From Rotaria magnacalcarata (taxonomy: Eukaryota): a stretch of DNA of 57,502 nucleotides. The notes under the pieces were generated by a model. That model worked only from the letters and a program-made list of their open reading frames with translations, ran no database searches and had not been told where the DNA came from. Numbering within the stretch: the first letter of the stretch is position 1; each line of letters starts with the position of its first letter. Shown here one piece after another: positions 5,591 to 54,755 of the stretch. The stretch covers positions 87,492 to 144,993 of the forward strand of contig CBCSLL010000171.1 of assembly GCA_965140935.1 (NCBI GenBank), in the 5' to 3' direction. The position numbers and the translations under genes were made by a program.

Positions 5591-5671
5591 GGGTGTGGCT
5601 GTGACTGTTTGGGTGAGTACATTTTGGTTTCTATTGCCATATCAACCCATCCCCACACCCACACCACACCC
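5591..5671. repeat. Telomeric-repeat-like hairpin H1 (degenerate): G-rich arm gggtgtggctgtgactgtttgggtgag and C-rich arm caacccatccccacacccacaccacaccc.
   Basis: Inverted G/T-rich then C/A-rich arms read directly; complementarity is imperfect. Confidence 0.5.
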
Positions 5672-6125: not shown

Positions 6126-6748
6126 ATGTCAGTCATCGAGAGTAAGGCAGAAAGTTTCGTTCTAATCTGGCTGGATCAAACTATCAAGAAGAACAAAGAT
6201 ACTGTTGATTCTGAACAAAAACTTCGTGCTATTGTCAATTCACTAGTTACTTGCCATACAATTAATGAAGCCATGGATTTGATCGAACAAGTTCAGGATC
6301 AGCAAATTTATTTGATCGTATCTGGCAAACTTGGAAAGCAAATTCTTTCAATGAATCAAATCGTCGACTCTTCTAAATTGAATTCTATCTATATCTTTTG
6401 TGGTGATCAAAACGAAAACAAAGAATTACTTCAACTCTCCAATAAAGTACGCGCCATCTTCGTTGAAATCGATCCATTATGTGCTCGTTTGAAAGACGAT
6501 ACAGAACAAGCGTTGAAAAATCTTCTACCTATGTCTACTACATCAGGAACTTCAGCGGACGAAAAAAATCAAGTGAAATTTCTCTGTTCACAACTTCATC
6601 GTGATCTACTTTTCACTATGGAGTACAGTAATAATGCAAGACTGGAACTCGCTGACTTTTGCTCCAGTGTATACAAATTGAGTCCGACTCAACTCAAGTG
6701 CATCCAGGAATTGAAAACTGAATATCATGCTGGCAAAGCAATCTGGTG
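6126..6748 (+). CDS. Gene B exon 1: shared N-terminal alpha/beta domain (FVLIWLD...IYLIVSG...SIYIFCG), ending ...KAIWW.
   Basis: ATG at 6126 within ORF 5970..6752. The donor tg|GTAAGA at 6749 splits the second Trp codon. This exon is homologous to exon 1 of gene C and to genes A and D. Confidence 0.6.
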
Positions 6749-7073
6749 GTAAGATAAACTTTTGAATGCTTTCATCAAATACTATTCATGATAAGACCTC
6801 ATTGATGAACTGTGTATTTCCTTATTTTAATCCTAACATCCATTTTGTGAAAGGTCAACACTTAGAGACGAAATCCGATCACATAAAAACACTCGCAGCT
6901 TCCGCTTATTAGGACGTATCAAACAGAATTTAAGCATCGCAATGGTTAGAAACGTCCACATATGATGGGTATTGACCTGTTTGAATCTTAATAATTCAGT
7001 TTCATGATAAATGGCAGAGTTGATCTGTATTGAATTACCGGAAATAGATAGGCAAAGATTCTTTGTCTTTTAG

Positions 7074-9517: not shown

Positions 9518-11292
9518 TTATCTATTAGCTTCCCACCAGAAATAATTCGCTAAAGCATGACAAACTCTTTTGTAATCCAAAACCAATTGTTGCAATTCTG
9601 GTGAATCAGGTTGAAAATCTGAATGCAGTTGTTTTAGATGATCGATGCCAAATAATAATAATCTGTAGTTCAGTTCCTCAAAATTGATTATATCAAAAGT
9701 AATATTTTCAAATCTTTTCCTATAACGTCTAGTCCAACTAGTTGCAAATAAGCGATCTTCAGCAGGACAAAAAATTTTTATTTCTTCAAGATTAGGTGGT
9801 ATATTATCAACACTAGACAACCAGTGTTGGATGTTATCGTCATAACCAAATAGTGTAACCAGTTTTTGAAGATTTGTCTCTATATGATTTCGACATTGTA
9901 CTGTATCGTTGAAAACTCGAACAAAAGACATCAAATCAGAATTAGGTAATGGAATAGCTACAGCTACTCCATTCTGTTCGTAAAGTAGAAGAGTGAAATG
10001 GCTACCATTGTGGTAAACGTTATTGTTAAATTTAATAGTGTGAATACTTTGCATCTAAAATGAAGCATGGATAAAAATCTGGTTATGTGTACAAATTAAG
10101 CAAGAATATGCATATTGAATTTCTTTTGATGTAAAAATAAATGTTAAAAAACTTTAAAATAAGTTTATCAATGTATTTTCAGTTGTTTTGCATTGTTTTG
10201 GCATGACAATCAGGCTAATTTTGATATGACGGAGACGAGTATTGTTGTGCCATTAAGTGGTACGGTTTCATTTGTAGACACTGATTTGTATGCTTTTTTC
10301 AATTCGACATGGATTTGATTAGCTACTGCATTCTTTTCTTCCGCTAATGATGATTGATCGGATTCTAACAATTCCATTGATTCCTTTTTACAACATCGAT
10401 ATATTTCATCGGCCAATTGGAAGATGAGGTCTTCATCATTATCGAATCGTTTTCGATAATCGACTTTGTTTTTATCATTTTCTAATATGAAAATTGCTTC
10501 ACCATGTTCTAGTTCGCCTGCCATTCCAGCAGCACACTCACTACTTACAAAGAATAGCGTGGTCTTATTAGGCAGATGCTTTAAATCGAGAATTGAAGCA
10601 TGGGTTTTAATGATTATTGAATCTTTCATCAATAAACACAAACAATTTAACATGGCCGAGGCTCGTTTATTTAACCGTGTCAACAAGTCAATAAGAACAA
10701 ATTGAAAAGTAGTGAGACAAGCTAAACCAGAAATCATAATGTTTCATGTTGTTTATTTAACATGCAAGCGCATACCTGGCTCAATTTGTGTACGCTTCTT
10801 CCACGGATTCTCTATTTCAGATATGTAAGTACAATCATGTGATCGTTTTATAGCCACCTTATCAGATTTTGGTCTGCCCATCATTGCCGGATCCGTCAAA
10901 TTTCTCGATATTTGTTTTATGAGTTCGTTTTTGTCAGAACTGACAATGCGCACTTTTGGATACTTTTGTGCCCATCGATTCGAAGTTTTACGACCCCAAG
11001 AACATAAATAAATAGCAATGATGGATTGTGACTCGTGAAATTTTGGTATAATTTTATTTTGAAACTTATTAGACAGAATAAGAATAATCTGTTTCTGTGA
11101 CTTGTACGATTCGAACCACTGTTGAAATTGAACGCAATCAACGATTGAGGTAATATCGATATGATTTTGCTCTAAGTTTTGTATAACTGTTTGAATCCGA
11201 TCGCTTTGTTTAGCATTTGAATCGAGCCAAACAAATGCAAAATGTTTCAAAGTCTGTATTTCTTTCGTTGATATAGATGCAATGTCATCCAT
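9518..11292 (-). CDS. Gene D: truncated paralogue carrying only the N-terminal region of the ART-TPR family. Exons approx. 11292-10776, 10721-~10213, 10054-9518. It ends ...ANYFWWEANR* exactly where the ART domain begins in genes B and C.
   Basis: Three minus-strand ORFs. A 54-nt intron runs from donor cag|GTATGC to acceptor tggtttAG. The third exon begins at cattttAG|ATG. Sequence is homologous to the family (FAFVWLD...IILILS...IIAIYLCS; DYKRVCHALANYFWW~TEYHAGKAIWW). The exon 2/3 junction is not resolved. Confidence 0.5.
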
Positions 11293-14730: not shown

Positions 14731-14733
14731 TTT

Positions 14734-14813
14734 GGGTGTGGGTGTGGGTGTGAACTCTGCATATGGATGTTCGTTTATCCAACCGTCACAACCATACTGA
14801 CACCCACACCCGC
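14734..14813. repeat. Telomeric-repeat hairpin H3: (gggtgt)3g ... cacccacacccgc. It abuts the right end of a foldback element.
   Basis: tttgggtgtgggtgtgggtgtg at 14731-14752 is complementary to cacccacacccgc at 14801-14813. Confidence 0.65.
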
Positions 14814-24640: not shown

Positions 24641-25127
24641 ATCTGCTGTTTTCGGAAATTTGTATCGAGATTTCTTCTATTTTTTCTCTACAAGAAATGC
24701 GCCTATTATGTAATGCTTTACCTATTCATTGCCACAATGAACATTGGCTATCGGAAAGGAAGTAGTAGAGGCTTTTACATTCCGACTTTAGGCCATCACA
24801 TGGTTTTCTTTGAAAATTCTTCGAGTGAGAAATCAAACGTCAACATGGAAGTGACTAGCCGTGAATGGTGCTCCGAAAGAGCTCTGACAAAAAACTAGAT
24901 GCTTATCTATATAAATCATCACAGTTATGTTTCACATTGTGCAGTACCCTATAGAAAACTTACATCAGGGATACCCGAAAGTGATGGTGACACAGTAGAA
25001 CACTCTTATAGAAGGTTTTAAGAAATATTCTTCTTTCATTTGATGATAGAGAAAATGAAACTCTATTTTTCTATGCTGCTTTGTTCCTATTCGACTGGTG
25101 CCATAATAAAAAGATTTCGATAGAAAT

Positions 25128-25668
25128 TGTTGTTGTTGAAAATTTAACTAACAATTGAAGCAGATTAAATTAGCTACGCTTCCATTTCAATTTTCAATCA
25201 GTTAGATGTTCGCTTGCCTATCTCCTATCTCTCCTTTATTTCCCAGAAAACATTGACTATATGAGATAAAAAAGAGGAATTTCCCTTCGTATGAAAAACA
25301 ATGATTTTTCGAGGTAGTCGCTGAGAATTTTACGCTTTTTTAAAAAGAATAAGTATGCAATTAGACTATGTGGTCTCATATAGATGGTAGGATTTTTCAT
25401 GCGGCATCATGTGATGTACTTTGCTTCTTTTAAATAGAAGATATCAGGTGATAAACATATGTAATGAAAACACATGAATTTATCTTGTACGAAAAAGATA
25501 TCGTTTTCAGACGGTCAAAAATTGGTTGCTGAAACTTCTAGAGCTTTTCACGTTGCACCTTACGGTACATTTTCATTTTTTAAATACAATATATTAGGCG
25601 ATTGACAGTTGAAACAGAAAACGAAGCAATTTAATCTGCTTCAAGTGTTAGTTAAATTTTCAACAACA
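25128..25668. repeat. Inverted repeat with ~45-bp arms (25128-25172 and 25618-25668) separated by ~445 bp. It lies just upstream of calmodulin-like exon 2, in the putative first intron or promoter region.
   Basis: gttgttgttgaaaatttaactaacaattgaagcagattaaatt matches the reverse complement of aatttaatctgcttcaagtgttagttaaattttcaacaacagc. Confidence 0.7.
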
Positions 25669-25766
25669 GCGATTCCTGTTGAAATTTTATTACTATGATA
25701 TCAGTCGAATAGAGATGAAACGGCATAGAAAAACTTTTGTGTACCCCTAAGTATTATTCATTCTAG

Positions 25767-27627
<1,861 letters not shown>

Positions 27628-28100: not shown

Positions 28101-28624
28101 AGTAGCAATAGACCGAAAAAGTTCTTGTTAAACTATCTGCGGTTTTGGCATCTTTTTCAGCTATTGCACATTTGACTGAAGCACATCGAAAATGTTGTGT
28201 ACATATTTCTTCCAGAGATGACCATGGCTTGCGTTCGTAAATTTTGAACCCAAGTGAAACTCGGAGAAATTCAACTACAGCTAAACAACTAGCTGCCTCT
28301 TTCCAGTTCAAAAATAGCTCAAAATTCAAAAAAAAGATATGCATCAAGATACAGAAAAATACAGATAGACTTCATCTGAATTATAAAACATAGCAAGTTA
28401 GCCTATTTTCCATCATTTTGATGCCTTCTAGCAGTTTTCAGAAAACTGTTTTCTCAGATGACTCCAAAGTAGTAAAAATTGAAAGTAATCCACGTAAGTA
28501 CCATTCATATCTCATTTGATAGAGTATATAGTGGTAGTAAAAATCTCAAAAGCGCTTTGGTCTATGGCTTTTGGAAAGTTATACCCGTTCTAGTGAATTT
28601 TTGACCTATTCCTAGGTGCGCACT

Positions 28625-28730
28625 AAAAAGATAAAATTAAGCAATTTCGATCTGAAACGTTGCCCACGGATTAGTCTAAGAACCCTTATAATATCCTGAA
28701 AGTTTCAGATCGAACTTACTTAATTTGATT
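28625..28730. repeat. Short inverted repeat (~30-bp arms: ttaagcaatttcgatctgaaacg / cagatcgaacttacttaatttg).
   Basis: Read directly. Confidence 0.4.
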
Positions 28731-30698
28731 TTTTAAATAAATATCTACGAATAGGTTAAAAATGCAGTGAAAGGACCATAAATTTTGAAGAAAGAGCCAT
28801 GGGTCGAAACCATTTTTGGCTTTTTACAAATATGCTTTTAGCATGGCAATATATTCAAAATATCAGCTTCAACTATTTTTCTGGGACATATATGGATCAT
28901 TCTTATATCGAATTGTTTTCCGACATATGAAATTTGTAGATTGACATGATGTAGACATTTAATTTAGCACTGGAGTATTTGTGATAATGTTTTATAGTTT
29001 ATCGCAGCTGTAGTCAGCGAGGAAGAGTAATTAATTTGACGTAAATGTTTGGTTTTTTATTAAAAATAAAGTTTATTTGGCACTTCTCTAGACAGCAGTA
29101 TTTTTTAGCATGGCAACTCTCAGAATTGTCATCGAAAATAAGTGTTTTGAAACAAGAATCATTAGATGAATATGAAAAGGCTGATTCGGATAATGGAAAG
29201 GAACGTTTACCAGAATCGACTGTTCTTAATATATTTTCAAAATTAGAAGGCCAACAAGTACCAATATCTACTGTTGATAACAAACTGAAAGGAAAGAAGA
29301 GTGCGGATATAGGTGAGGTCACCGTTATCATCAAGCTCATTACATTATTTCCGTTATAGAATCATTGTCCTTGCCACTTTTAGGACCATCACTCGAACCG
29401 CCCACAAAACAATCAAGTAAATCAACGTCAGGTTTAATATTGCCATGCCATCAGCCATCAGTAGAAATATCTGAAGCTATAGGATCCCTATCTTGTATTC
29501 ATGAGCTCACGACTACAAGTAAGATTTGAATAATATACTGTTTGTATACGATCAAGAGTTTCGAAAGTTTTACACTTATTTCCGAGAAGGAAACAGCAAT
29601 TTATGAGCTTGATGTATTTGATTAAATGTAAGTGAGTCTAGTGAGCTTGATTAAGTTTTAGTGGATTTGCCCCATATTTTAAATTCATTGTTACTGAGAC
29701 TCCTTGAAGTTCAGGAAAAGTAATTAAAAGTTAGAAATGTTATGTTTCAATTACTGTCACTGATAAGTAACATTCGTGTTCTTATTTATACTATTGCTAT
29801 AGTAAATCATTAGTTTCGAGAAATACACTTTTCCTAACGAAAGTCGGAAGTTTACAAGTTCAGAAAATCGCCTATACATGGATGTGAATAAAGGTAAATC
29901 TTCCTGTTACGTACACCTACACTTACATTCGCACTCTCTTAATTTTTTTCTGGTGTAGCAAGAACGGTGGTAAGAACTTGAGTTATTATAGTGCGACATC
30001 CTTATTAGTTCGTTGTCAACTGTGCACGTTAAGCATGCTACGTTCTAATTTGTTGCCCATTTTAGGCGTCGAATTGGCATTGGCAGAATCATTCGATTCG
30101 TACGACCATACGGCTGATACTTCTGGATGGACTTCTCTTTCTTTTTCCGAACCACTGTCACCAGACGTATCATATCGAACAATACCATCCTGCACTAATG
30201 ACAGCTGTATGCCATCTCCAATAGCATCCGAAATGACTCCAAGTGTTGGTAAGTTAGAATCATATAAATTTCTCGATTACTTTAATCAATGGATAATGAA
30301 CATAGAACCATCTTTACAAATCTCGTCATTTGGTGGTAAACATGATAGCATACAAGTTACTACGAGGGAATCAAAAAGCTCGGACGGTCGTATACTCAAT
30401 GAAATATGTTGGAACGAAGTGAATATGCCAACAAAAACATCAGTTCGATACACTAAAGTAACTACATTAAAATGCAAGTTTTCCAGATACGTCATTCAAT
30501 TTTAGGAGCACCGGTATGACGACAGTAAGAAAAAATTTACACGTGAAAGTGCACAGCCAAAATCCACGATTCGCAATCAGACAAGAAAACTAGAGATGTG
30601 AGTTTTAAAAGGTTTGATAAGGATATGCAATGATTAGTTATTAATTGTCATTTTCGATCGATGGCTCTTTTTTTAATGATAATGAAATGAAAATTTAG

Positions 30699-31199
30699 AT
30701 CTCGATCAAGAATGGCATGTAATTCAATGTCCGACACATCTGTCTGCAATTTACTTCTTCTGGATGTGTGTCCACTTGGTCTGGGCATCGAAGATATTAA
30801 GGGTGAGATGCATACATTAATACGTCGTAATACAGCTATTCCAACGCGAACTCAACTTTATCCTATATTCACAAATGCTTATGCCTATCAGACAACAGTT
30901 ACCATTCGAATATTTGAAGGTGAACATTATCTCACAAAATACAATGTATGTAGTGTTCTAACTTCATAAATTTTATTTTCTAGTCTTCTCTATTGTAGAG
31001 ATTATTGGGCGAGTTTAGTCTTTCTGGTCTAACAAGCAACTTCGCTGCTCAGACACTCGAAATAGCTATTCGTATGGATATTGATGCTAATGGGATACTT
31101 CATGTCGATGCCGAAGAAGCACGCTCGGGCGCGAAGGCTCTATTTATTTTTGGGTCCGGTCAGCAAAGTTCGACAATTACTCAGATATTTCATACCACC
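30699..31199 (+). CDS. Two exons (30699-30945, 30999-31199) encoding an Hsp70 substrate-binding-domain (SBD-beta)-like segment. The complete gene structure (about 29100-32000) is unresolved and no canonical Hsp70 ATPase domain was recognised upstream.
   Basis: LLLLDVCPLGLGIEDIKGEMHTLIRRNTAIPTRTQLYPIFTNAYAYQTTVTIRIFEGEHYLTKYN | [44 protein letters not shown] aligns with the Hsp70 segment [32 protein letters not shown]...[49 protein letters not shown]. Donor aat|GTATGT at 30946; acceptor ttgtAG at 30997-98. The frame is phase 0 throughout. Confidence 0.55.
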
Positions 31200-33469
31200 G
31201 TTAAGTGCCTTTTATATTTATCTAGGATTGAGCAAATATGATATTGAGCGACATATTACATATGTAGAAAGCGATGCAAATTTTGCAGCTAAATCTGGTT
31301 AGTCTGAAAAAAGGATAAATGATGTTCAATTATTGTTATTTTGTAGTTTATGATCATAAACCCAATGATCAATTGTATCTAGTTCGTATTATGTCATCTT
31401 TTCATAGCTTCGATTCTTCACTTTTTCTGTCTTTTCTCAGCTGGATGGTCAAATTGAATCTCTAATACGTGACTTTTCCGGTGAACTTATAACCTCATTC
31501 GGTAATTTGTCCTTTGTTGTTGTTTGAAAGATATAGTGCAATGGTGTATGAATTCAGGCCAAACAATTGGTGCTCCACTTCTCATTAAATTGAAAAATGT
31601 TCAATTTTCAAAAACGTTAACTGAAGAGCTCATCAAACTTCAATCCGAGGTAATTAATACTATTTTCAAGTCTTATTACCAAATCATTGTTTTGCATTTG
31701 ATTCGAACATAGGACGGTTCATTTACGTTGAATAAAGATTTAGCTGATATACTTCATGTTAATGTTGATATTTTCAATGGTCTAGAACAATATTTACGCG
31801 CACTAGGTTTTAACTCGCTCGGTAAAATCGTACGGTTTATTATAGAGATATGATCTTTAATTTTCTTAGCTCTGAACACACAAAATGAAATTCTTCGTTT
31901 AATTGGTACAGGTGCCATTCTGCTTTGGCTCGTTCTTCAAATGCAAGACTCACCACAAAACACGTGTCAATCTTTATTTAATATTGAACAAATCAAAGTG
32001 AATTGAATTTTTCCAATCTTTGCAATTTATATCCTACTCTCTCTATGTTGCTAAGGCTTTTCTCTGCAACTATTTACCTGTTAACACAAGTGAAAAACTT
32101 AACAAAGCGATCGGATTCTATCAACAAATAAGTCAACGTAATTGTATCTATTGTAAACAATTAGAATTGAGCGATTCATCATGGGACATGTTTATTCAAC
32201 GTATGGTTATCGGCATCGATCATGACGATAACTAAAAAGTGATTTTCAGTGGCATCTATTTATTTTTCTAATAATTTTACCTTTACACTTTTATTATTCT
32301 AATCATGAATCACATCAATATTGTTTATTCTTAAACACAAAAGAAAACAAAGCATTAAAGGGTGCTGTTAGAAGTGCGTGAGGCTAATAGTAAACATAAG
32401 GCGCACATCTTTATGTTTTTCATGAGTCATGTGTTGGAAAAAGTAGTTGCAAGAATCCTCAGTGCAAATCTTGGCGCGCTAATCATTATTCCTGGCTTAC
32501 AACTAAGAGGCATTACACGTAAGTCACGACCAATTGCCACAGAACGTTGCTCAATGAATTTCACTGATTTGAGTGATCTTTTTACTGTGGGTAGATACCA
32601 TGAAGTTATGAAGAGTCCCAAAATTTCAACTCAAACGAATAAGCCGTTCCCAAAATATGGGTTTTGAAGATATGAAAATTTCGAAAAAATTCAAAATTTT
32701 TGGGGTACGATCATTTTGAGTAAATTTCCATCTTCTTACCAACGATAAAGGTTATCGCCGAGATATTTTTACTATAGATACTATCGCTAATGGACTACCA
32801 TTGGATAGTAACAAAAGTACTTCATCGCTCTACAATAGTACCCTAGTATTCTATACCATTTTCAGAATACATGTTCGTATAAATCAGGTAAAGTGATTGG
32901 ATCAGCGCACTAGAATGAGTAGCTAGGATTCGCATCTGAAAGAGCACATAAAAGTGCATCACATGGCGTTATCAGGTGATATTGAACTTTAGTATAGAAA
33001 AGCTTTTCAATAATAGTTTAATTTAATATGAAAATTTTCTATCTAGAAAATACTCATTCTAGTCGATATTTCTCATACTTTATCGTTAGAAATTGTCTCT
33101 TTTAGAAAAGTAATTGTATATTATGATAGTGCTTGAAATTCTACACAAACATATGTACCCAGGTCGAACAATCTGACAGAAGATCTTGTCAGATTTTTCG
33201 ACTTGGCTATATAGGAATAGAAAAGAGGCTTAATTTGACAAATACATTATCGTAGTCATCATATCCATCAAATGATTCTTTAAATTTCTTTTACAAACTT
33301 ATGATGATGATGCATAGAAATTATTATAATTGTCAATATATATTAAAATAGCACATAAAATCCTCTATAATTTTCTCTATTTGAAATTTTGTTATGTATT
33401 TTATAATTTCATTGTCAAGATTTTCGATATTATGTAAAACGATAGTGTTAGGTAGTGAAGTTGTACTTG

Positions 33470-34716: not shown

Positions 34717-34940
34717 TTCAATGTTGCAAAACGCGTCAATGCTGACCGGTTTAATGCGTTCCGCAGCTACTGAATCGGTTTAAAATGCCGCGAGATGATA
34801 TGCCTTTTGTTTTCAACCTGAAATAGTGGCTCCCAAACGTGTTTTGAGTAAATTGGAAAATTGGTTTTACGCCTGTGTTACCATAGGAAACGCTGCGAAA
34901 CACGTTAAATCGGTCAGCATTAACGCGATTCGCAGTGAAT
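34717..34940. repeat. Locally GC-rich inverted repeat with ~45-bp imperfect arms and a ~125-bp spacer (cgcgtcaatgctgaccggtttaatgcgttccgcagc / gctgcgaaacacgttaaatcggtcagcattaacgcg).
   Basis: Read directly. Its base composition contrasts with the surrounding AT-rich DNA. Confidence 0.5.
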
Positions 34941-36217
34941 ATATCTTAATCTTTTATCCCATGAGACATCCCACGCCTATTTATTGCTTGTATTTATGAT
35001 TACAATCAATATTCTTTCTGAACTGCACAAAATCTTGCACCATCGACAGTTTCATAGGACTTCTTATGTGTATATTGATAGTACAATTTCATTATATCTA
35101 CTTCATAGAAAAGCTGATAAAACATGTTTCTAACAGAAATAGAACTAAATGAAGACAGTTATTTTTAAATTTCAACCGGTGATTTTTCGGTATTTATCAG
35201 CCCGGTTGAATATCTGAACCGGATAGTTTTCTGATTTTGAAAAAAAAAACATTCTAATTTTTAGGATTTTTAGCTGACCACTGGTGATAGTGATATCTAT
35301 AGAATTGAAACGAAACAACATGGATGGATGATTGTAACGCATGAACATATCTCATTGGTTAATAAATTTTGTATGAAATATGAAATGAGGTAGATATTTA
35401 CACTTTGGTTCAGTTCACAGGTTTCGTTCACTACTGTGCACCATTACTATTCAGTTTTATTTTATTTGTCAGAACTTCATTTCCTATATTATGACAACCA
35501 GGTTGTTAAATCATTGCTTGTCGTTTCCAAAAGTTTTCTTGAAACGATTAAACAACATCAAATCTTATATTAATTTGGGTACCGAAATGAAATTATTGAA
35601 TGATAAAAAGCAATTTGAAAAAGCACTCGCAATATTTGATCAACACGGTATAAACAATATTACCACGTTGTCGAATTTCGCCATTGGTCACGTTTAAAAG
35701 CATACGCTAATGTGAGAGATCTTCAACGTGGCAAAATTATACATAATCTCATTGCATCCGAAACCAAAAATGGTATATATGTATCATCAACATTAATTCA
35801 TATGTATGGTAAGTTTCACCAAGAACTTTCTGTTTCTTTTCTTACTGATTTTTAAATACAGCGCAATGTGCTGATATCGCAAGTGCTCAATCATTATTTG
35901 ATTCGACCAAAAACAAGACATCCTCAATGTATCGAATCATGATGAAAGGTAATGATTCTTTCAAGGATTAGCATAAACAAGCACATGGTTCTTAAAGGCT
36001 ATAAGGTGCACACAATGCAAAATTCGAGTAAAATTTATTTTTCGTTTTTAGTACATCATTCGATAGAACAGATGACAGTGATCACGAATATTTGGTTTAA
36101 ATTTTTTTTAGATGCTGTCTTGGGTCTGAAAAACCAGAAAAACTTTCGGCTTCTGAAAAACCACTTTTTTCAGTGTTTTTCCGTAAAATGGGATTTTGAG
36201 ACTCAAGACATAGTCTA

Positions 36218-37348
36218 TTTAACTTGAAAAGGACATATTCTTGTTCAGCGTGAAATGCTGAATCAGAATATATCATCAATAACTTTTTAGACACTAACCG
36301 TCGCCTGGTAGGGCCTCTACAGTGGAGTCTTCAGAAACCCTAAGTACCCCTACTTCCAAACTTTTCACAGGTTTTATTTGTCATGCTAGAATCAATTTTT
36401 TATGCCAATCGACTCGTCAGATCATTCTGCACAAAACTATGCGAGTAGATTTTCGAAATTTTTTTTCTTGGTTGAGAAAATCGGATTTTACCAAAAACCT
36501 ATGCTAAAACGAAAATCTCACTTTTCTGCTTTTCCTTGATTTTCGAGATATGAAACCCAAAAGATTGCCAAGTAGGTAATCAAGCATGGAGAATTCAATG
36601 GACATCCTCCTGCAAGCTTTATATGGTTCTCTAGGGTTTTTGGAGGCACTTAGCAAGGTTTTTGGGTGATTTTTCGCCAAATTTTGGGGTTCATAAGACA
36701 CTGAGTATTGTGGAAGCTTACAAGCCCACCAATTTCGGTACTTAGTGCCGTTTCTTGCAGATTTTGACGTAAAACTTTTAGTTCCAGTAAATAATTTCTA
36801 TTATGCCTCGAAAGTCACAGCATTCGAAATCGATCTCCTGTGCATTTCTACACAAGAGAACCATTGAAAGTGAGAACTGCAGTGGCTCATCCGAAGCAGG
36901 TATTGATTCAGAAGCAAACGACAGAAGCTTGGAGCGGTCGACACAATTCATATAAGAAATTACAAATACTGATCTGCCTGTTTTGTTTGAACTTTGCTAG
37001 GCGAAATGCCCACTTATATATCTGACTGTTTTACCGTAGATGACTTTGCGCAATTTTTCGTTTTAGCATAGGTTTTTGGTAAAATCCGATTTTCTCAACC
37101 AAGAAAAAAAATTTCGAAAATCTACTCGCATAGTTTTGTGCAGAATGATCTGACAAGTCGATTGGCATAAAAAATTGATTCTAGCATGACAAATAAAACC
37201 TGTGAAAAGTTTGGAAGTAGGGGTACTTAGGGTTTCTGAAGACTCCACTGTAGAGGCCCTACCAGGCGACGGTTAGTGTCTAAAAAGTTATTGATGATAT
37301 ATTCTGATTCAGCATTTCACGCTGAACAAGAATATGTCCTTTTCAACT
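36218..37348. mobile_element. Second large foldback element from a different sequence family. Arms are ~36218-36515 and ~37052-37348 (~300 bp, near-identical) with a ~535-bp spacer.
   Basis: ORFs 36322..36507(+) and 37063..37248(-) encode the same 61-aa peptide, which is diagnostic of an inverted duplication. The arms were checked by eye (ttgaaaaggacatattcttgttcagcgtgaaatgctg... versus its reverse complement at 37290-37348). Confidence 0.85.
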
Positions 37349-38628
37349 TAAGAGTCATTCTCTGTAGGAATTACGGCCTTTGAGAAGTGACCCACCTCAG
37401 AATTGTCTGAAAATTTCAGGGTATAGGTAAAAAGTTGTCCTGATTCTAAAAATATAATTTTTTTAAAGTTCTCATTGGGAAAAAGAAGTTATGGCTACTG
37501 GACCATGACCAAAATGAGTATATATCGATTTTTTAAAAATTGTCTAAAAATATTTTTGATATGTCAGAAATGTAGAGCTCATCAAGCTGATCATTTTTAC
37601 ATTGGCCATATCTTTCTAAACCTTAAGCTTCAAGCGCTAATTCGTCTCTAAAGTAGACAAATATTAAGAATTTCACCTGTTTCCTCATATTTCACCATTA
37701 AAACTCAGCATAAGTACTACTTATAATACATGGATTTAATCATCTGACTTCCAACTACACGCTCATGTGTTTACCGACTCTTCAAGCCTCTCCCTTCGAA
37801 AGCTATACCGCAAAGAACATCGAAAAAGTGGAAAATAACGCACAACCTTACACTTGTTTCGGATTTTTCTAAAAAGGTATCAAATCAATGACTTTCAATC
37901 TAACAGAATCTTGTTCAGAATAGTCAACTCTACCGGAAACTGTGATTTAACAATTTAGAAAAAAGCGTCAAAAAAAAGTTCCTTTTAATATGGTTAGATC
38001 ACAATATCCAGAAATATCGCTAAAATATTTTGTAAACCGTCGCATTAATTTTTACAAGAGTGGAATAAAAAACCATGTATCACAGATTGTAGCGCGCCAT
38101 TTCTACTATTAGGATCTGTGTTTAGTTTTGTTTCCACTGTTACTTTATGTGGAAAATGTTTGGTAACTTGGAAAAAAAGTGGTACAAAAATAGACAAATG
38201 AGCAAATAATTCACCTTTTACATAGTGAATAAATATTTTCAGTCCAAAACTGATAACGGATTCAGAATCTACGTAGAAATCTACGTGCATAGCGTTAGTC
38301 TCTTACTCACCCACACGTACAACTACCTAACAACTGATAGATGAAAGTGCTTTACACAAGAATATATTTACATGTGTCAAATTTTGTTTTGTGTTCTGTA
38401 CAATGTTTCTTTGCTCCTAGAAGTGTTGTAATGTCCACTGACGGTAGAATGGTCATGTGGGAGAGGAGAAGAAAAAGAGAAAATAGCCAAGTTTCTTGTC
38501 GTTCTGCACACAATTTGACGTTAGAAAGAAAAATGTGTTTTTCTTGAAAATCGTTTGTTTTTGAGGATAATATTATTCACTTTTCAAAATCTTTACAACT
38601 TCTGTTGTTAGTATAAATTATTTATAAT

Positions 38629-39250
38629 TTGAACTCAAAGTTAAACAAAATAATGACAGGTCAAGATTCGAAATTTCAAAAGTGTTCCTTTTATGATCAT
38701 TTACACGATTTTGGTCCAAGTACAAAACCAAAAAGTTTTGACGTGGTTTCAATTGATCAATTGGAATCAAATGTACAACTGGGACTAGATTATGTCTCAG
38801 AATTTGATTTAATTGTTTCACGGTGTGGTGTATCAAATGTGGAAGTAACTGATATTCGAGAAATATGTGCAAAGCATCGATACAAATTCTGAATTTATTA
38901 CAAACTATCTCGTTGTTGTCAGCATCCCAACTGCATCAACAGATGTACTTCTTCAAAACATGCTTCGTTGAATCTGTCACGTTATGTTTCAACGAAATAT
39001 CGGTGCAAGTTTCCCATAAGTACTTTATTTTTAAATGTTAAACTGTTCATTAGTATTTCTGATTATTCGATGTTTTAGAAGGAAATATTTGTATGGTTTG
39101 TCGTGGTCAAGAAGAAAAAGTAATGAGAAGCACAAACTCTGACTCGGGCGGGCTATCTCCAATGGAAGAAGAGGCAGTGGAGGAAACTTTAACAAACTTC
39201 AAACAACGTCCAACAGATTTATACAATTTCCGGAACATTAAGAATCCACA
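38629..39250 (+). CDS. Candidate upstream exons (approx. 38629-38890?, 39076-39250) of the unknown-function gene whose large exon starts at 39734. They contain Cys/His-rich motifs (QKCSFYDHLHDFG; EGNICMVCRGQEE).
   Basis: Exon 39076-39250 ends ...NFRNIKNPHF + a (donor a|GTATGT), which is phase-compatible with acceptor catttAG at 39732-33. The exon joining 38890 to 39076 was not resolved. Confidence 0.3.
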
Positions 39251-39733
39251 TTTTAGTATGTTTATTCTTTGAAAATGCTTATATTTTTGAGTGATTGTTA
39301 CTTATTTTAATTCGGTGGATACATTTAATAATAAATAATAAAGAAAAGATTACCGAATAGATCATTTTTTATTAATGAGACGTTTCGTCAACAGGATTTA
39401 AACTTCAAACTTTCGTAAAGGAACTCGCGAAAAAGTTTGAGAAAAGGCTTTAGATGCTTTCGAAGGAAATGATCTTACGTGAGCACGACACATAGACTTA
39501 TTAAATCTAAATGTCTATTTTGCATGAACGTTTTCCAAGTTTATTTAGTAGCTCGATTTGGAGTATAATAAACTAATGGTGCAAAAATGACAGGTTCGAT
39601 CGAGGTTTTGCGCTTGATACAAAACCTTCATTTGAAGGAGTGTTCATTTGCGTTTATAGCACTGCCCATGCCAAACGGAAATGATTGTTTTCTCGCTAGA
39701 ATCGCTAATTTACTTATTCTTATTTCCATTTAG

Positions 39734-41631
39734 ATAACGATGAACTAAACAAGTCGTTTTCTGATCTCAGCACCACCACCAGTCAACAAAGTGTTGGGCA
39801 TGTATGGGAAGAAGAACTGTCTGGATCTCAAAAAGCAAACGTAAACGAAATTCGTTATCAAATAAATCCATCTTTGAATCCCATCATGTATCAAGTTAAA
39901 AATTCTCCGTTTACGACAAGCAAAAGAAAACAAAATATGTTAAAACAATCTCTTCTCTCTATTCTAAGGGAGTCCACTTCATTTTTTGCCAAAGCTTATT
40001 GTCCTGGTCATTCCAAAGAACTATTAGATTTATGTGAAGTTCCGACGTTTCTTCGTAAAGAACATGATACATTTTCGAACGATGATAAAATATTACAGTC
40101 GATAAAAGAAATTTATGGTAATAGTACGGACAGTCGATTAAAACTTCAGTTGTTATCTATCGTCGTAAAGAAAACTTACGCGCCTACCGATATTAAATCT
40201 GCATTCAACTGTAATGATTATATGATTACTCAAGCGATACAACATGGGTTAAACAACGGTTCCTGTTCTATTATACCGCGACAACATTTTCATCGTACTC
40301 GAGTCTCGTTTAACAGAATAAAACATTTTATGGATTTTCTATTCGATCATGATTTCGTACAGGACGTTGCGTACGGCACAACAAAAATTCGAACAATAAA
40401 TGAAGCGTTCACAATTCCGCTAGTCGTTAAAAAATGCATAAACTCTCATATCGTCTATGCCTATGATGAATACTGTCAACAAATTCCATTCGAACGTCTA
40501 TCAAAAAATTCATTATATCGTGTATTAAAGGAATGTAAAATGTCTCAACGAACATCGCTTGCTGGTCTTGATGATTACACTGCAGATGGACCAGAAAGCT
40601 TTGATGCACTAGAAAATCTCGTATCATCATTACCAGTTACAAAATCGAAACAGCAACGAATAATAACGCAATTACATAATGCCAAAAGATATTTAAAAAT
40701 CGGATTTTCCTTAAATTTATCGTTACAATCGAGTATTTCTTCACATTGTGTCGACTTTGCTCCTTCGGATTCTAATTCTAAAAGCGATTTTTATATTAAC
40801 TGTAATCATCACCACAGTCATCATTGTGAAAGCTGTGAAAATTTAGTCACAACACTCAGTCAAATAACAGAACTAATTCGGACGTCTAATAATTCAAAAA
40901 AAGAAGAATGGCAATATGATTGCACTGCAAGCATTAACAAAATTTATGAGTGGCAGAAACACCTTGTTCATCATTTTGCTCAATCCAAATCAAAAAATGA
41001 TATTTTGAAGAATCTTAAACCTGATGCAGCATTTTGGCTTAGAGATTGGAGCATGAAGGTATTACCTATAGAGTATCGTGAAAAGTCCAGCAATTGGTTC
41101 GGTAAACGAGGAATGTCACAAGAAGTTGACATTTTTTCTGTAACATCTGGAAGAACAACGAGTGATAATCAACAAATTCCATTAAAATATGTTTATTTGA
41201 CGATGCTTGATCAATCCAGTAAAGATATACACACCGTGGGCGCAGTGCCTGATCAGGTCCTGAAGCAATTTCATATTGATGCTCCACAAGTGAAAAATAT
41301 TTTAAGAAAGGACAATGCAACGTGTTATGCAGATGGTGCACAAATATATCTTACAAAATACATCTGTCAGCAAAACGGCTTTCAGTTGAAACGTATTGAT
41401 TTTAACGAAGCTGGTAAAGGAAAAGATCTATGCGACAGAGAAAGTGCATGCACAAAAACACATCGTGATTATTATGTATCTTCCGGACACAATGTTACTA
41501 CTGCTCTTGAAATGAAACAAGCTGCTAAGTCGAATGGAGGTGTCAAAGACACAAAAGTTGCAGTTGTCAATATCGAAGATAACGGTAAGAATAGTTCTAC
41601 TTTCGAACGCCTGGGTCTAGGCCATTGTTGA
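39734..41631 (+). CDS. Large terminal-region exon (about 630 codons) of a gene of unknown function. It has a His/Cys cluster (CNHHHSHHCESCENL) and a D...(33 aa)...E arrangement (RKDNATCYADGAQ...IDFNEAGKGKDLCD) faintly reminiscent of DDE/DD34E transposase cores.
   Basis: Long open frame. It continues in frame upstream of the annotated ORF start to acceptor AG 39732-33 (…DNDELNKSFSDLSTTTSQQSVGHVWEEEL…). Stop at 41629-41631. No confident homology was recognised. Confidence 0.55.
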
Positions 41632-42109
41632 GAAAACAACTGTTTTACTTGTTAGGATCCCTAATATAAGCGTTAAGAAAGCTATATAGCTCCAAGGATG
41701 TCTCTTCCTGACATGATAAAAAAACCAAAGCGATGAGGGTTGATTTATCCCGCTTCGAGAGCATCAAAATTAGAAACGTTTTACATTTCTGTTTGAACAT
41801 TTTAGAAAAAGCTTTAGGCTGCCAGTTGAGAAAGATACAGTGGCCAAATGGAATATTTAACGAAAAAGCACCACAAACTAATCATACAAAATCTTTTTTC
41901 TTTTAGAAAAGACACTAAAATTAGTTAAATTAAAAGACTCGACTCAATACCATAGTTATGAATTTGTTAATAACAATGTACGAGCATGGAGACAATATGC
42001 AACTGGTTCTGGTCATCTTCTAAAATTACCACTATTCGAACAATTAGAATTTAAGTCAGGACTGACGGTTATCAGTCCGTTTCCTCCAATTTTCTCTCAA
42101 GGAACCAGG

Positions 42110-42728
42110 TTGAATTCCGTAAAACAATCATCTCAACAAAGAAAACGATCATCAAAGAAATCGTCAGTTTTATTCTGCTCAGATTCACATTGTGTTTCAA
42201 CATTTGTTGATATCAAAGAACTTGAACAACATTTAAAAACCAACCAACATGGATATTTCCAAGACAATGCTGACTTGCAAAGTCTTCCAATCATAGAAAA
42301 AGCAAAGATTTATTTTATTGGTCATCTTAAAGGTGGTTCCAATATCGCTAATTCAACTCCACACTCTACTACATCGTCTTCTACCTCATCGGTAACGAAA
42401 AAGTCTCGCCCTAATTCGATTTGGATTGCTCAAGGTTGGGCACAACAAAAACGCTCACTAAGAGTTTCGTTATCGATACAACAAACCAAATTCTTAGACC
42501 AATTGTATGAACGTGGCGAAGAATCAAAAAAAAGTCTACCCAGCTGCAGCAGCAGATTTAATGCGAACAGAAATTGATAAAAAGAATAATAAACTATTTC
42601 GTCCTTATCAATACTTGAATAAAAAACGAATTACAAATTATTTTTCGTCGAAAAAAAGAAAATCACTTCAACGTTCATCAAGTGCGGTTGATGAAGTAAG
42701 TATAAGTTTCACCAGCAAGCTGCTTTAA
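42110..42728 (+). CDS. ORFs downstream of the 39734-41631 exon. They contain a C2H2-like zinc-finger-like motif (FCSDSHCVSTFVDIKELEQHLKTNQH) and a basic, Ser-rich tail. They may be separate exons or a separate gene, and there is a frame change between 42110..42577 and 42507..42728.
   Basis: Open frames only. The C-x4-C-x12-H-x5-H spacing fits a C2H2/U1-type zinc finger. The next feature downstream is a telomeric-repeat hairpin at 42790. Confidence 0.3.
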
Positions 42729-42789
42729 AAATGCTGTCTACTTTTTATTGGAGGATCATCACGATGATGAAGATGAAGAAGCTGCTCTT

Positions 42790-42878
42790 GAGGGTGTGGG
42801 TGTGGGTGTGACTAGATCGATACTCGCATTCCAGTCCCATATGCCACAAACCCACACTCATACCCACACCCACACCCC
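42790..42878. repeat. Telomeric-repeat hairpin H4: gagggtgtgggtgtgggtgtg - 48-bp core (actagatcgatactcgcattccagtcccatatgccacaaacccacac) - tcatacccacacccacacccc.
   Basis: Read directly. The internal core is shared with H6 at 48290-48366. Confidence 0.8.
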
Positions 42879-43262
42879 AAATCAAGGATTACTTTTGATT
42901 TTTTTGTTGTAGTAATCGGTTATTAGTTTTTCCCCTTACTCTTTTATTCGTTAAAAAACTTGAACAAAAATAGTCGAGCACGGCGAATCCGAATCTGACT
43001 TCAATTATATTATCACTAATTATTAACTTATTACTAGTTAGTAGTTCACAAATACTACTTCTACGAGAAAGAGCTGAGCGAGTCCTCAGACGAGCGTTAC
43101 TTGTATTTATTTGTTAAATGAAAAGAAATGAATTAAATAAAAGAATTTGTTTTATTTTCACAAAATATTTATCATTGAAATTTAAAAAAATTGTACTATT
43201 TTCGGATGATTTATTTTTTTAATTAAAATTTGTGTTATTTTTGCAAATTTTAGTAGTAAAAC

Positions 43263-43336
43263 AGGGTGTGGGTGTCAGGGTGAGGGAGTCTTAATGAGAG
43301 ATTTGCATCCACTCGACACCCACACCCACACCTCAG
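43263..43336. repeat. Telomeric-repeat hairpin H5: agggtgtgggtgtcagggtgaggg ... cgacacccacacccacacctc.
   Basis: Inverted (GGGTGT)n/(ACACCC)n arms with a ~30-nt spacer. Confidence 0.7.
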
Positions 43337-44770: not shown

Positions 44771-44893
44771 ACAGGACTTAATTTTATTCATTCTATTTCG
44801 AGTTTCGAATATAAAATGTTTTTACGGTGTGTGTTTATCACTCGAAAAGATTAAATGTATGTTCACATCGAATTGCATATGAATGTAGACTGG

Positions 44894-44973
44894 GTCTCGA
44901 TAGCTTAGTTGATTAAAACGTCTGGCTAGTTACCAGAGTGGATACTACCTGGGTTCGATTCCCAGTCGAGGTT
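44894..44973 (+). tRNA. tRNA-like pol III gene with atypical features: an 11-nt variable region, a D-stem mismatch and G18-A19 in the D-loop. The anticodon loop is CTAGTTA, so the anticodon would be AGT (Thr) by position. It may be a diverged tRNA, a pseudogene or a tRNA-derived element.
   Basis: Acceptor GTCTCGA pairs with TCGAGGT (5 Watson-Crick + 2 G-U pairs). Anticodon stem TCTGG/CCAGA. T-arm CTGGG-TTCGATT-CCCAG gives a GGTTCGATTCC box-B-like element. The gene is followed directly by the T-rich run tcgTTTTcTTTTc at 44974-44986, consistent with a pol III terminator. Confidence 0.45.
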
Positions 44974-44986
44974 CGTTTTCTTTTCT
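44974..44986 (+). terminator. Oligo-T pol III terminator after the tRNA-like gene.
   Basis: TTTT then TTTT within 13 nt immediately 3' of the acceptor stem. Confidence 0.4.
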
Positions 44987-45410
44987 TTGTGTTCGTTCTT
45001 TCGTGTGATAAACACACGCCGTAAAAAATCATCTTTTATTCGAAATTCGAAACAGAATGAAACCGAAATTATTTTCAATGTTATATACTTAACAACGAGA
45101 CCTAGCTGCTAATCTACCTCGTTATTTTTATTCCGCTTTATTTAAAATAATGTAACAACGGTTTCAATGAGACCCCATTTAGAAAGCACTTATCCACCAG
45201 AAATGGACGGGTTTCAGGGAAATGGCCTGTAAAATTTGGCGATTTCTTCGTCTTTACGAGAAACCAGCTTTTCTTTTTAAAAGCATACCTCTGTGGGACT
45301 ATGGATAAGGTTCAAAGTGAAAACATTTCCACTCACACCCTCTAGTCGTGAATGGCTTGTTTTCTTTTGAACCATTTCTAGACTTTGAATTTGGAGGATT
45401 TTTTCTCTAA

Positions 45411-45878
45411 ATGGGTTGTAACCATGGTAAGTTTGTCACAACAGCAGTCGTTGTCAACCAAAGCAGTGCATCTCCTGCCATCGATATCCAGCACAACGAA
45501 CCACCAGTCGTAACAGGTGAAACTCGTTTCACCACAACAGCTGATAGTACAATCCTTATCAACGATGAAAAGATTAACCTTGAATCGCATCAGTTAGTAT
45601 GGTTAGATGAAAAGACAAGCGAGCAGATTAGTGAAAATATAGTTACCATTGAAAGTCTACGTAAAATTGTCGATTACACGAAGTTATTTGATAATGTTGA
45701 AGAATGTCGGCAGTACCTTGAGAATTCGAAAGATCATAATGACATATTCTTAGTAACGTCTGGTCAGTCAGGAGAGAAGTTGATACCTGAAGTTCATCGT
45801 CTTCAAAATGTGTTGTTAATCTATGTTTATTGTCAAGATAAAGAATATCATGAACAATGGGCATCAAAATATCAAAAG
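45411..45878 (+). CDS. Gene C exon 1: N-terminal MGC (potential N-myristoylation/palmitoylation) motif, then the shared N-terminal alpha/beta domain (LVWLD...IFLVTSG...VLLIYVYC).
   Basis: ATG at 45411 (MGCNHGKFVTT...). Donor AAG|GTAAAAG at 45879 is phase 0. Homologous to exon 1 of gene B. Confidence 0.7.
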
Positions 45879-45943
45879 GTAAAAGAGTTGTGAGCTTTCT
45901 TACGAGAGGGTGACTAGATCTCTTATATTCTGCATGCACACAG

Positions 45944-47869
45944 GTCAAGAAAGTTCATGGGATACTTGATCAATTATTAATGGAGCTTAGAGAAGACGTT
46001 CAAAATTATTCGAAATCTGTAAGAGGTGGCGTATCTAACACCCCGATGAAATCACAAAAAAGCACAGACGACAGTTTCGCCTGGTGCACAAGATTTTGTA
46101 ATATTTTGGTTCATCTGCCCTTTCCTCAAACTTGTCACGATAGACTTGTAAATTTCTTGAAAAACTATTATAAGAACAACGAAGTAGAATTGAAATATGT
46201 AGAAGAATTTCACCGTGACTACACACCAAAGCAAGCAATCTGGTGGTATACACGTGAAACATTTATTTATCGCATGCTTAACGCTGCCCTACGTCAATGC
46301 GACATTAAAACCATCGTTCTATTTGGGTTTTTCATTCAAGATGTATATCATCAATTGAAAGAAGAACATAAAAAGTTCCTACTTTTATACCCAAAAGATT
46401 CGATCATAAAATGTTATCGTGGGCAAGTAATGTCGTATCAAGAACTCCGCCAACTAGACTTCCAAGATGGAGGACCAAAAACAATCGTGAACACCAGTTT
46501 ATTTTCAACATCAATAAATCGCGATGTACCGTTCCGTTTTCTGTCTAATGTAATCAATCTACAACAGTTGGAATATGTCATTTTTGAAATTGAAGTCGAT
46601 ACTCGTTTGCAAACTCGACCCTTTGCTGATATTTCACATTTGAGTGCTTGCTCAGACGAATCTGAAATATTATTTATGATCGGCGCATGGCTTCTTATCG
46701 AAAGAAATGGTGTTTCGTACTCGTATGAAGACAATAAGAAAATTTGGACTATTAAGTCCACCCTAACCAACGACTGGCAACTGAAATACGAGCAATATCT
46801 CGAAATGACGACACAAAAGGAACATTTACAAAAGTGTCTCCGTAGAATATCTTTGCACATTTATCATGCGACACCCAATGACGTAGAGGTGGCTTTCAAC
46901 GAACTACTTGATTTATATCCGTCTGAAAGATGGATTTTAGCACTGAAGAAAGAAAGTCTTGGTGATAATCAAAGCGAAATAAGCCATAACCGTTCAGCCG
47001 CTTTAGAATATTATCAAAAAGCATTAGAAATCTGGTCTGAATACGTTAACGATGATGAATTGAATGCCGATTATGATATTGTTCGTATCTATTGGAAAAT
47101 TGCCACAAATAATGCAGATTCCATAATGGCTATGAAGTACAGTGATTTAGCCATTGTGCATAGCCAACCGGCGTTCGCAAAAGTTAGCACGAATTACGAA
47201 CGATATAGGTTACATGGATGGATGGCTGTTATATATAAAGAAAAAGCAAACATTAGCACTGGGGACAGCGAGAAATCAGAAAATTTGCTAGCGACCATCA
47301 AATACACCGAATTACAACTAAACAATCTGATCGAGTTGCAATGTACCACAGCGGTTGGCAACTATGACAATCTCACTGCTCTTTGTTACATAGAGTTAGG
47401 TGCCCTTTATCAATCCGTATTGAAATATAACGAAGCAATAACAAACTATGGAAAGGCTCTGGAATTTGAGCTGGCGAAGCTAGACCCTGATTATGAGAGA
47501 ATCGATCAACTTACTAGGGAATTAGTTGAAATTTACAGTGAAAAGAAAAATGATTATAATGCCGCATTTAAGTATGAATCATTAAACCATGAGTATTTAT
47601 TAAAACAATACATGGCAAATCCAACAAAGGATTATCTTCGCGAAGCCAATAGGAACTATACACTAGCCTGTAGTTACGCTGCCTTAGCTACGATTTGTCG
47701 GAAAATGCAGCGATATGATTTAGCGGCTGAAAATTTAACCAAAACAATCGAATCATATGGGAACAGTTTGCACTATGATAGGTACGCATTAATGTCAGCC
47801 CACGAAGATGATTTGATGGAAATAAACAAATTGTTAGCATCATCGAAGTCTGCAGAACCAACATCATAA
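45944..47869 (+). CDS. Gene C exon 2: arginine-type ADP-ribosyltransferase domain with an intact R/STS/ExE triad, followed by TPR repeats.
   Basis: Acceptor cacacAG at 45942-43. Motifs read AIWWYTRETFIYRMLNAAL, CYRGQ, SLFSTSINRD, RPFADISHLS and SDESEILF. TPR-like helices run across the C-terminal 330 aa (…SAALEYYQKALEIWSEY…LGALYQSVLKYNEAITNYGKALEFE…). Stop at 47867-47869. Confidence 0.8.
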   Translation, partial: VKKVHGILDQLLMELREDVQNYSKSVRGGVSNTPMKSQKSTDDSFAWCTRFCNILVHLPFPQTCHDRLVNFLKNYYKNNEVELKYVEEFHRDYTPKQAIWWYTRETFIYRMLNAALRQCDIKTIVLFGFFIQDVYHQLKEEHKKFLLLYPKDSIIKCYRGQVMSYQELRQLDFQDGGPKTIVNTSLFSTSINRDVPFRFLSNVINLQQLEYVIFEIEVDTRLQTRPFADISHLSACSDESEILFMIGAWLLIERNGVSYSYEDNKKIWTIKSTLTNDWQLKYEQYLEMTTQKEHLQKCLRRISLHIYHATPNDVEVAFNELLDLYPSERWILALKKESLGDNQSEISHNRSAALEYYQKALEIWSEYVNDDELNADYDIVRIYWKIATNNADSIMAMKYSDLAIVHSQPAFAKVSTNYERYRLHGWMAVIYKEKANISTGDSEKSENLLATIKYTELQLNNLIELQCTTAVGNYDNLTALCYIELGALYQSVLKYNEAITNYGKALEFELAKLDPDYERIDQLTRELVEIYSEKKNDYNAAFKYESLNHEYLLKQYMANPTKDYLREANRNYTLACSYAALATICRKMQRYDLAAENLTKTIESYGNSLHYDRYALMSAHEDDLMEINKLLASSKSAEPTS

Positions 47870-48289: not shown

Positions 48290-48366
48290 GGGTGTGGGTG
48301 TGACTAGATCGATACTCGCATTCCAGTCCCATATGCCACAAACCCACACCCACACCCACACCCATG
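48290..48366. repeat. Telomeric-repeat hairpin H6: a near-identical copy of H4 (same 48-bp core) with a different repeat number in the arms.
   Basis: agggtgtgggtgtg-actagatcgatactcgcattccagtcccatatgccacaaacccacac-ccacacccacacccatg. Confidence 0.8.
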
Positions 48367-53722: not shown

Positions 53723-54688
53723 TTTTTATTTTAAGATTAGTTAAATTTAATTCTAAATGATTAATAAATTTTTGTAATAGATCATTTGAAAGTTTTGTTT
53801 TAACATCAAAATACTTTTGTTGATGACGAACAACAAATAAACTGACAATATTCAATAGATAAATTTGAATGAAAATTATTATTTATTGGTGATTCACATT
53901 CAATTCAACGTTTTATTAATAGATATTGTTTATCGAAAAAAATTATATTGACTTATAGAATTTAAATTAATTAAATAATTTCTCGTCGTATCTCATCCTC
54001 GTCAGTACATAATTTTTGTTGTAGAAAACATATTTTTGAATTCAAAATGAAATGACTGATCTGTCTTATTTACTCGCTAGTTTTGAATTGACGATCACAC
54101 GAGAATATATATCTTTGAAAAATATGTCATAAAATAGATCAACCAGTATATTTATAGATAAATTTATGTTTATAATTTTACAGGAGAACAATATGCAGCA
54201 ATTCTACAAAGGATAAAACTAATGTGGTTTAATGGCTATTCATTGTATATCTCATACAGACAATGAAACAAAGAATATAAAGGTCTATTGGTAGATACGT
54301 TGACTAACAAAAATAGACAAATGTTTCATTTCATCTCATGAGCCATATGTGTATTCGTTCTATTTCAACAATCGATTCGATGCATTACTAAATACTGTTT
54401 CTAACTGAATAAAAATAGTTTATGTTTTCTCATGAATACACAATGCTTCGTAATTTTCTTTATACCAACTAGTAAAAAGACTAAGAAAATTCAAGCCTCA
54501 TAAGGTATCGGAAATTCAAAAGCACAGTAAGAAAATAGATTTCGTTGAATTATATACGATTCGATAGAGCTCGCGAAAGCACTGTCCGATCGGAATCTCA
54601 AATATTTGCACATTTACTGTGGCTATTTCTTCGTCATAATATTCTACCTTGATTCAGCATCAAATATTTGCTTGGCTGGCCAGCTCTT

Positions 54689-54755
54689 GAGGGTGTGGGT
54701 GTGTGGCTGTTGATGGTGCTGCAGCTCTGAATGACCACCCACACCCACACCCTCA
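54689..54755. repeat. Telomeric-repeat hairpin H9: cttgagggtgtgggtgtgtggctg ... ccacccacacccacaccctcaag.
   Basis: The 20+ nt inverted arms include the cttgaggg terminus, which is also present at H4. Confidence 0.75.

Follow-up and report, generated by a model that had tools for sequence, protein, structure and literature searches.

The locus and its neighbourhood

The DNA analysed here (hereafter the window, meaning the whole stretch of 57.5 kb from Rotaria magnacalcarata) has a GC content of 30-38% and genes with short introns. Paralogous single- or few-exon genes form a cluster in it, located at 1768-3561, 5970-8523 and 45411-47869 on the plus strand and at 9518-11292 on the minus strand. 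A Pfam scan of the plus-strand members found TPR repeats, and the gene at 7063-8523 also carries an ADP-ribosyltransferase domain that is present in family homologues too. The TPR gene family is hugely expanded in bdelloids. Within the cluster, the 629-aa ORF at 45980-47869 matches an annotated R. magnacalcarata protein with 100% identity and has lower-scoring matches in other Rotaria, Adineta and Didymodactylos. A calmodulin-like gene occupies 25767-27626 and harbours a foldback in the intron that follows codon ~59; no last exon of this gene was recognised by a motif search up to 3 kb downstream, and the gene may be truncated or diverged. Besides the foldback that is the subject of this work, the following features of the window are considered:

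26042-27129: calmodulin-intron foldback, 364-nt arms, 98% identity
14434-14734, 25066-25733, 28575-28785, 34725-34934 and 44787-45061: smaller inverted repeats
38650-42577: transposase-like gene (main ORF 39874-41631, second ORF 42110-42577)
5646-5663, 14731-14754, 42789-42880, 43313-43330, 48290-48366 and 54688-54755: TGTGGG stretches

At least seven interstitial TGTGGG stretches of 2-3 units each occur in the window, where shuffles predict none. Several form inverted pairs that amount to 75-nt mini-palindromes; the two at 42798-42872 and 48290-48364 are 97% identical, each lying 220-420 bp downstream of a stop codon. TGTGGG is the bdelloid telomeric repeat and is enriched around subtelomeric transposons (PMC7943196), and its distribution here suggests that the window is a subtelomere-like region or contains old healed breaks.

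Going by published work on bdelloids (PMC7943196), a subtelomere-like window rich in transposable elements (TEs) is expected to be locally rich in inverted repeats as well, which says little about the genome as a whole. The view taken in an earlier note on this DNA, that foldbacks are unusually abundant in the genome, is thus unsupported. Two of three other R. magnacalcarata loci, L011 (22 kb) and L015 (4.5 kb), have no inverted repeat of at least 40 nt. The third, L014, has two, one of them adjoining an N gap. The repeat at 12978-14669 of L014 has 498-nt arms of 98% identity around a 696-nt spacer, with the right arm ending at the N gap, and it may be a scaffolding artefact.

Anatomy of the foldback

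A real and discrete foldback of 1133 nt lies in an intergenic position of the window and is made up as follows:

36219-36515: left-arm repeat, 297 nt (inverted-repeat search and MAFFT arm alignment)
36219-36222, no strand: TTAA adjoining the left arm, candidate target-site duplication (arm alignment, palindrome continuation)
36223-36515, plus strand: left arm; 36223 (C) is unpaired with 37347, the core starts at 36224, and L001 matches up to its scaffold gap at 36414
36232-36274, plus strand: imperfect subterminal hairpin at the left arm tip (ATATTCTTGTTCAGC / GCTGAATCAGAATAT), from minus-strand self-alignment and a DNA fold (centroid structure)
36516-37054, no strand: unique non-coding spacer, 539 nt, 40% GC, without a protein or Pfam match
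37055-37351: right-arm repeat, 297 nt (inverted-repeat search and MAFFT arm alignment)
37055-37347, minus strand: right arm (arm alignment); at 37155 the window has A, L003 and L006 have G
37348-37351, no strand: TTAA adjoining the right arm, candidate target-site duplication; L004 and L007 have the same end

The arms are 99% identical, differing at two positions. At the first, 36223/37347, which is base 5 from each tip, C stands opposite C, and this lack of pairing is constant across all contigs covering the site. The second, 36415/37155, is polymorphic between isolates, so that in the two isolates with G at 37155 the 292-nt core (36224-36515 paired with 37055-37346) is perfect. As no inverted repeat of at least 40 nt arose in 10 mononucleotide shuffles of the window, the foldback is far above chance expectation. 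Arm identity ends abruptly on the outer and inner sides alike, and with such sharp boundaries the foldback does not belong to a larger inverted duplication.

Much of what the earlier note had described at this place is borne out: a discrete foldback shape with long near-identical arms and a unique spacer is evident from the arm alignment, the given limits of 36218-37348 are off by only 1-3 nt (with arms of ~300 bp against 297 nt and a spacer of 535 bp against the 539 nt found here), and the listed smaller inverted repeats are present. The alternative that it had raised itself, namely that the arms are a piece of a larger inverted segmental duplication, falls with the sharp end of identity. Its 1.13 kb foldback exists, with arms that are nearly rather than strictly identical. 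The lack of relation to the calmodulin-intron foldback also holds, there being no similarity between the two by blastn (word size 7, E<=1); more generally, none of the other inverted repeats of the window resembles the one at 36219-37351, and their ends differ too.

The outer 20-40 nt of the arm correspond to CTTGAAAAGGACATATTCTTGTTCAGC, and the hairpin at the left tip is mirrored in the right arm at ~37296-37338. Tandem Repeats Finder (minimum score 30) detected no tandem subrepeats in 36000-37600, no 9-mer is repeated within the arm, and there are no repeated subterminal motifs either. GC content is 36% in the arms, compared with 32-33% in the 2-kb flanks.

Ends and candidate target-site duplication

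Both ends follow the same order: the core, then one fixed non-complementary base, then TTAA, beyond which the flanks are unrelated. By our own estimate, the chance of four extra complementary bases after the mismatch is ~0.006 at the base composition of the region, for which reason TTAA is probably meaningful. Since TTAA is its own reverse complement, target duplications of TTAA, of TWA (TTA/TAA) or of TA would be equally compatible with these ends; alternatively, the flanking TTAA could simply be where the inverted repeat ends, a single base near its tip having mutated. With TTAA as the target-site duplication (TSD) the element termini read 5'-CTTG...CAAC-3', and with TA as the duplication the element starts 5'-A[C/G]TTGAAAAGG... 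The flanks, GACATAGTCTAT versus GAGTCATTCTCT, have no 9-bp direct repeat in common, with or without TTAA.

The foldback in other isolates

We retrieved the locus from 11 contigs of other R. magnacalcarata assemblies by means of the neighbouring TPR gene. None of them covers the whole foldback unbroken, and the six window-like contigs (99.9% identity) have it wherever sequence is present. L001 comprises the left flank and 196 nt of the left arm and contains one N, at 36414/36947; in L002 a run of Ns precedes 36494. Both L003 and L006 start within the left arm, of which they have the innermost 104 nt, and run on through the spacer, its orientation unchanged, and the full right arm into the right flank. 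L004 and L007 have the outermost 104 nt of the right arm and the flank. Combined, these pieces reproduce the junctions between left flank and arm, between arm, spacer and arm, and between right arm and flank. An apparent 532-bp deletion in L001 and a foreign left flank in L002 turned out to be N-filled scaffold joins. Contigs of a lineage with 99.6% identity start at 37585 (L005, L018) or at 37644 (L017, L019), their breaks (n=4) falling 234-293 bp right of the foldback and outside its arm.

A copy falsely inverted during assembly at a repeat or gap would be in keeping with the fact that every short-read contig of the locus ends in or near the arms, that two assemblies have N gaps inside the foldback and that the large inverted repeat in L014 likewise adjoins an N gap. 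However, breaks exactly 104 nt into the arms on either side are what results when a de Bruijn graph collapses an inverted repeat, and the right arm is polymorphic between isolates at 37155. Independent assemblies of different isolates repeat each junction and the spacer orientation, so we take the structure to be real and consider an artefact scarcely credible.

Coding capacity and predicted RNA

The longest stop-to-stop frame in the foldback has 97 codons. Neither the translated arm ORF nor the 13 stop-to-stop ORFs of at least 35 aa, joined as one query, had a match among 5.8 billion predicted proteins; these searches, joined and single, also served to seek other copies by way of mis-called ORFs. 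A Pfam scan of two spacer ORFs and three flank ORFs returned no match, and PPR-looking ORF fragments at 35491-35855 were dropped for want of Pfam support. Judged by these sequence comparisons, the foldback is without coding capacity. At gathering thresholds, Rfam reported only a tRNA, located elsewhere in the window; the one match of a permissive Rfam scan, a sub-threshold hit to GHRLOS in the spacer, was dismissed as chance (27.9 bits against a gathering threshold of 48, a sequence-only model, ~65% identity). As RNA, the element is predicted to fold into a single uninterrupted stem of ~297 bp (minimum free energy, -663.6 kcal/mol).

Search for further copies and for an empty site

A blastn self-comparison found no other copy of any part of the foldback within the window, and the 22-nt tip has no second occurrence there with up to 3 mismatches. 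No autonomous partner with the same ends was found in the window. Other rotifer loci amounting to ~65 kb, an amount too small to bound the copy number, contained no copy; this sample includes the three R. magnacalcarata loci L011, L014 and L015 as well as L016 (22 kb) from a related rotifer. L016 stems from ENA metagenome contig ERZ26165376 (99 kb) and has only the TPR gene in common with the window; as all its neighbour genes differ, the surroundings of the TPR gene are not syntenic between the two species. Two scans of viral contigs yielded no match to the foldback. Three metagenome matches to a 20-nt tip query are attributable to chance, being 20-24 nt long, without extension and without an inverted repeat nearby.

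Among the R. magnacalcarata contigs fetched, no empty site was recovered, the contigs of the 99.6% lineage beginning right of the foldback. Insertion into a gene or into another repeat was rejected because the joined flanks match nothing elsewhere, and two opposite insertions of a 297-bp element were ruled out because the single arms lack terminal inverted repeats (TIRs) or a duplication of their own.

A transposase-like gene nearby

Some 2.5 kb right of the foldback lies the transposase-like gene, whose annotated length is 871-1021 aa. Pfam gives no match for its main ORF of 585 aa, and 2571 representative homologues were found in a library of 1.84 billion proteins (E<=1e-3). The family alignment displays invariant D391, D480 and D521, the consensus motifs DWAMKFLP, WFGKRG.SWH, RSDNAGCYH and GKD.CDR, and CxxC/H motifs too. 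An AlphaFold model of the protein has a mean pLDDT of 84.8. Its Foldseek matches are weak, with a top E-value of 4.4e-3, none at 1e-3 and TM-scores of 0.14-0.18 relative to the query; those of high probability are RNase-H-like folds, namely the Mos1 transposase, the HIV and ASV integrase cores, SPARSA/SPARTA chains of prokaryotic Argonaute systems and the terminase nuclease of a herpesvirus. Based on the alignment and the model, the gene probably encodes a protein akin to DDD/E transposases, from a superfamily that Pfam lacks. It was rejected as the master copy of the foldback, since no TIRs flank it and no sequence like the foldback tips occurs in its surroundings; the two share no link.

Comparison with known elements

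Drosophila Foldback (FB) elements combine long fold-back inverted arms with a variable central region, a plan common to the foldback here, whose 297-nt arms are 99% identical. FB arms consist of tandem subrepeats, and FB elements make 9-bp target duplications. The arms here have no tandem subrepeats and the flanks no 9-bp direct repeat, hence the foldback is not a Drosophila-type FB element. TIRs and the absence of coding capacity are also those of a MITE, but at 1125-1133 bp the foldback exceeds the usual size of such elements (<~800 bp). MITEs also exist as many dispersed copies with target-site duplications, and no further copy turned up in the window, in ~65 kb of other rotifer loci or in the viral and metagenome scans. 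Membership in Foldback or MITE families, towards which the earlier note had leaned, is accordingly not established: a second copy was not found in the sequence searched, the target-site duplication is ambiguous and the arms lack tandem subrepeats.

Non-autonomous piggyBac and Kolobok elements are flanked by TTAA at either end, possess TIRs and lack an ORF, as is the case here; TTAA is palindromic, so that TA, TWA or an extension of the repeat would explain it equally well. The usual TIRs of these elements measure 10-20 nt, and the arms of the foldback are far longer. Termini of piggyBac elements are typically 5'-CCC...GGG-3'. Kolobok termini are 5'-RR...YY-3' with a TTAA TSD (PMC9587614). The termini of the foldback, which with TTAA as the TSD would be 5'-CT...AC-3', agree with neither: TTAA is compatible with Kolobok, but the 5' end is CT, both pyrimidines, and the 3' end AC. 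The TA inside each TTAA would be compatible with a hitch-hiker of Tc1/mariner transposases, the outer TIR of which should match the ends of an autonomous element; even when 3 mismatches are allowed, the 22-nt tip has no counterpart elsewhere in the window. A similar case is Tc7 of Caenorhabditis elegans, which Rezsohazy et al. are said to have described in 1997 and which reportedly measures 921 bp, with two 345-bp inverted repeats, a non-coding core, a palindromic target duplication and outer 38 bp that match the ends of Tc1, whose transposase moves it in trans. Its design, with long inverted repeats around a short unique non-coding core, is almost equal to that of the foldback; the difference lies in the tips, which in Tc7 match Tc1 and here are unlike Tc1 ends and were not found in a second copy.

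Within bdelloids, a passage on gene-rich contigs of Philodina roseola gives the insertion of a DNA TE resembling foldbacks as the only large indel among them (PMC2861651). Like the element described here it is a foldback-type DNA element in a bdelloid, detected in that case as an insertion polymorphism. The foldback looks ordinary and is most likely a new, unclassified member of the known long-TIR non-autonomous DNA elements.

Origin of the foldback

We consider it somewhat better than an even bet that the foldback is a non-autonomous class II transposon of the cut-and-paste type, or what is left of such a transposon, with two TIRs of ~292 nt around a unique core of 539 nt. Such an element would have inserted at a TTAA (or TA/TWA) site, its arm tips being recognised by a transposase that acts in trans, and its near-identical arms would mean that it arose recently or that gene conversion has kept them alike. 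The inverted repeat is discrete, several isolates carry it, and the symmetry of TTAA at both ends, where the core is followed by one base and then by TTAA, is how a TIR element with a palindromic target duplication would be expected to look. A GC content of 36-40%, against 32-33% in the flanks, is consistent with inserted DNA. The TE-rich context, with interstitial telomeric repeats, other inverted repeats and a transposase-like gene, also fits a transposon. Bdelloids have diverse DNA transposons, known TEs making up a few percent of their genomes, and the R. magnacalcarata assembly contains 27.6% of mostly unclassified ab initio repeat, of which MITEs are a minor part (PMC5916493, PMC7943196). 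On the other side stand the single copy in the sequence searched, the failure to recover an empty site and the absence of a superfamily signature at the ends. The main rival is an inverted duplication in situ, a one-off event in which ~300 bp would have been reverse-copied 539 bp away, either through template switching in replication or when a break was repaired by fold-back. In its favour, the foldback is single-copy in all sequence searched, a direct TSD is not unambiguous and no known superfamily signature fits the termini; the region, moreover, holds interstitial TGTGGG, which can be seen as scars of breaks healed by telomere addition. Yet a duplication in situ predicts arbitrary outer ends, and the succession of core, mismatch and TTAA at both ends has the low chance of ~0.006 given above. 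Several unrelated inverted repeats of the same design nearby point to a recurrent, transposon-like process, and the GC content of the element, spacer included, is unlike that of either flank. We therefore regard duplication in situ as possible, though on the unlikely side.

A third reading concerns function rather than mobility: the foldback, possibly transposon-derived, could be a hairpin-RNA locus whose ~297-bp dsRNA stem, if transcribed, could be processed by Dicer to siRNAs. The uninterrupted stem of the predicted RNA would suit this role, as would arms that stay nearly identical. RNAi-pathway gene families are reportedly expanded in bdelloids. These animals do possess RNAi-pathway genes (PAZ, PIWI, Dicer, RdRP), the gene-family evolution of which has been analysed (PMC7943196). 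Nevertheless, the window contains no arm-like sequence as a possible target, Rfam gave no match, and L016, the only contig recovered from a related species, has the TPR gene (81.5% nt identity) and no trace of the foldback, with synteny lost. We deem such a locus improbable, and less probable still its stricter form, a maintained hairpin locus with arms gene-converted in an asexual lineage and a transcript that would yield siRNAs through bdelloid RNAi; if true, the locus would represent a type of structured non-coding gene so far undescribed in rotifers.

By itself, the foldback matters little. Long-arm non-coding inverted-repeat elements such as this one and its neighbours may form part of the unclassified repeat fraction of R. 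magnacalcarata, and such long-arm inverted repeats break every short-read assembly of the locus. A genome-wide catalogue of them would improve the annotation of repeats and the assembly of bdelloid genomes, and could show whether DNA transposons still move in an asexual animal.

Other observations in the window

Hsp70-like ORF fragments at 30712-31241 (LGLGIEDIKGEMHTLIRRNTAIPT, DIDANGILHV), identified by eye, are split over frames and would represent either a multi-exon gene or a pseudogene. A tRNA-Thr(AGT) at 44894-44974 sits inside the 151-nt spacer of the inverted repeat at 44787-45061, whose arms measure 61-63 nt and are 87% identical.
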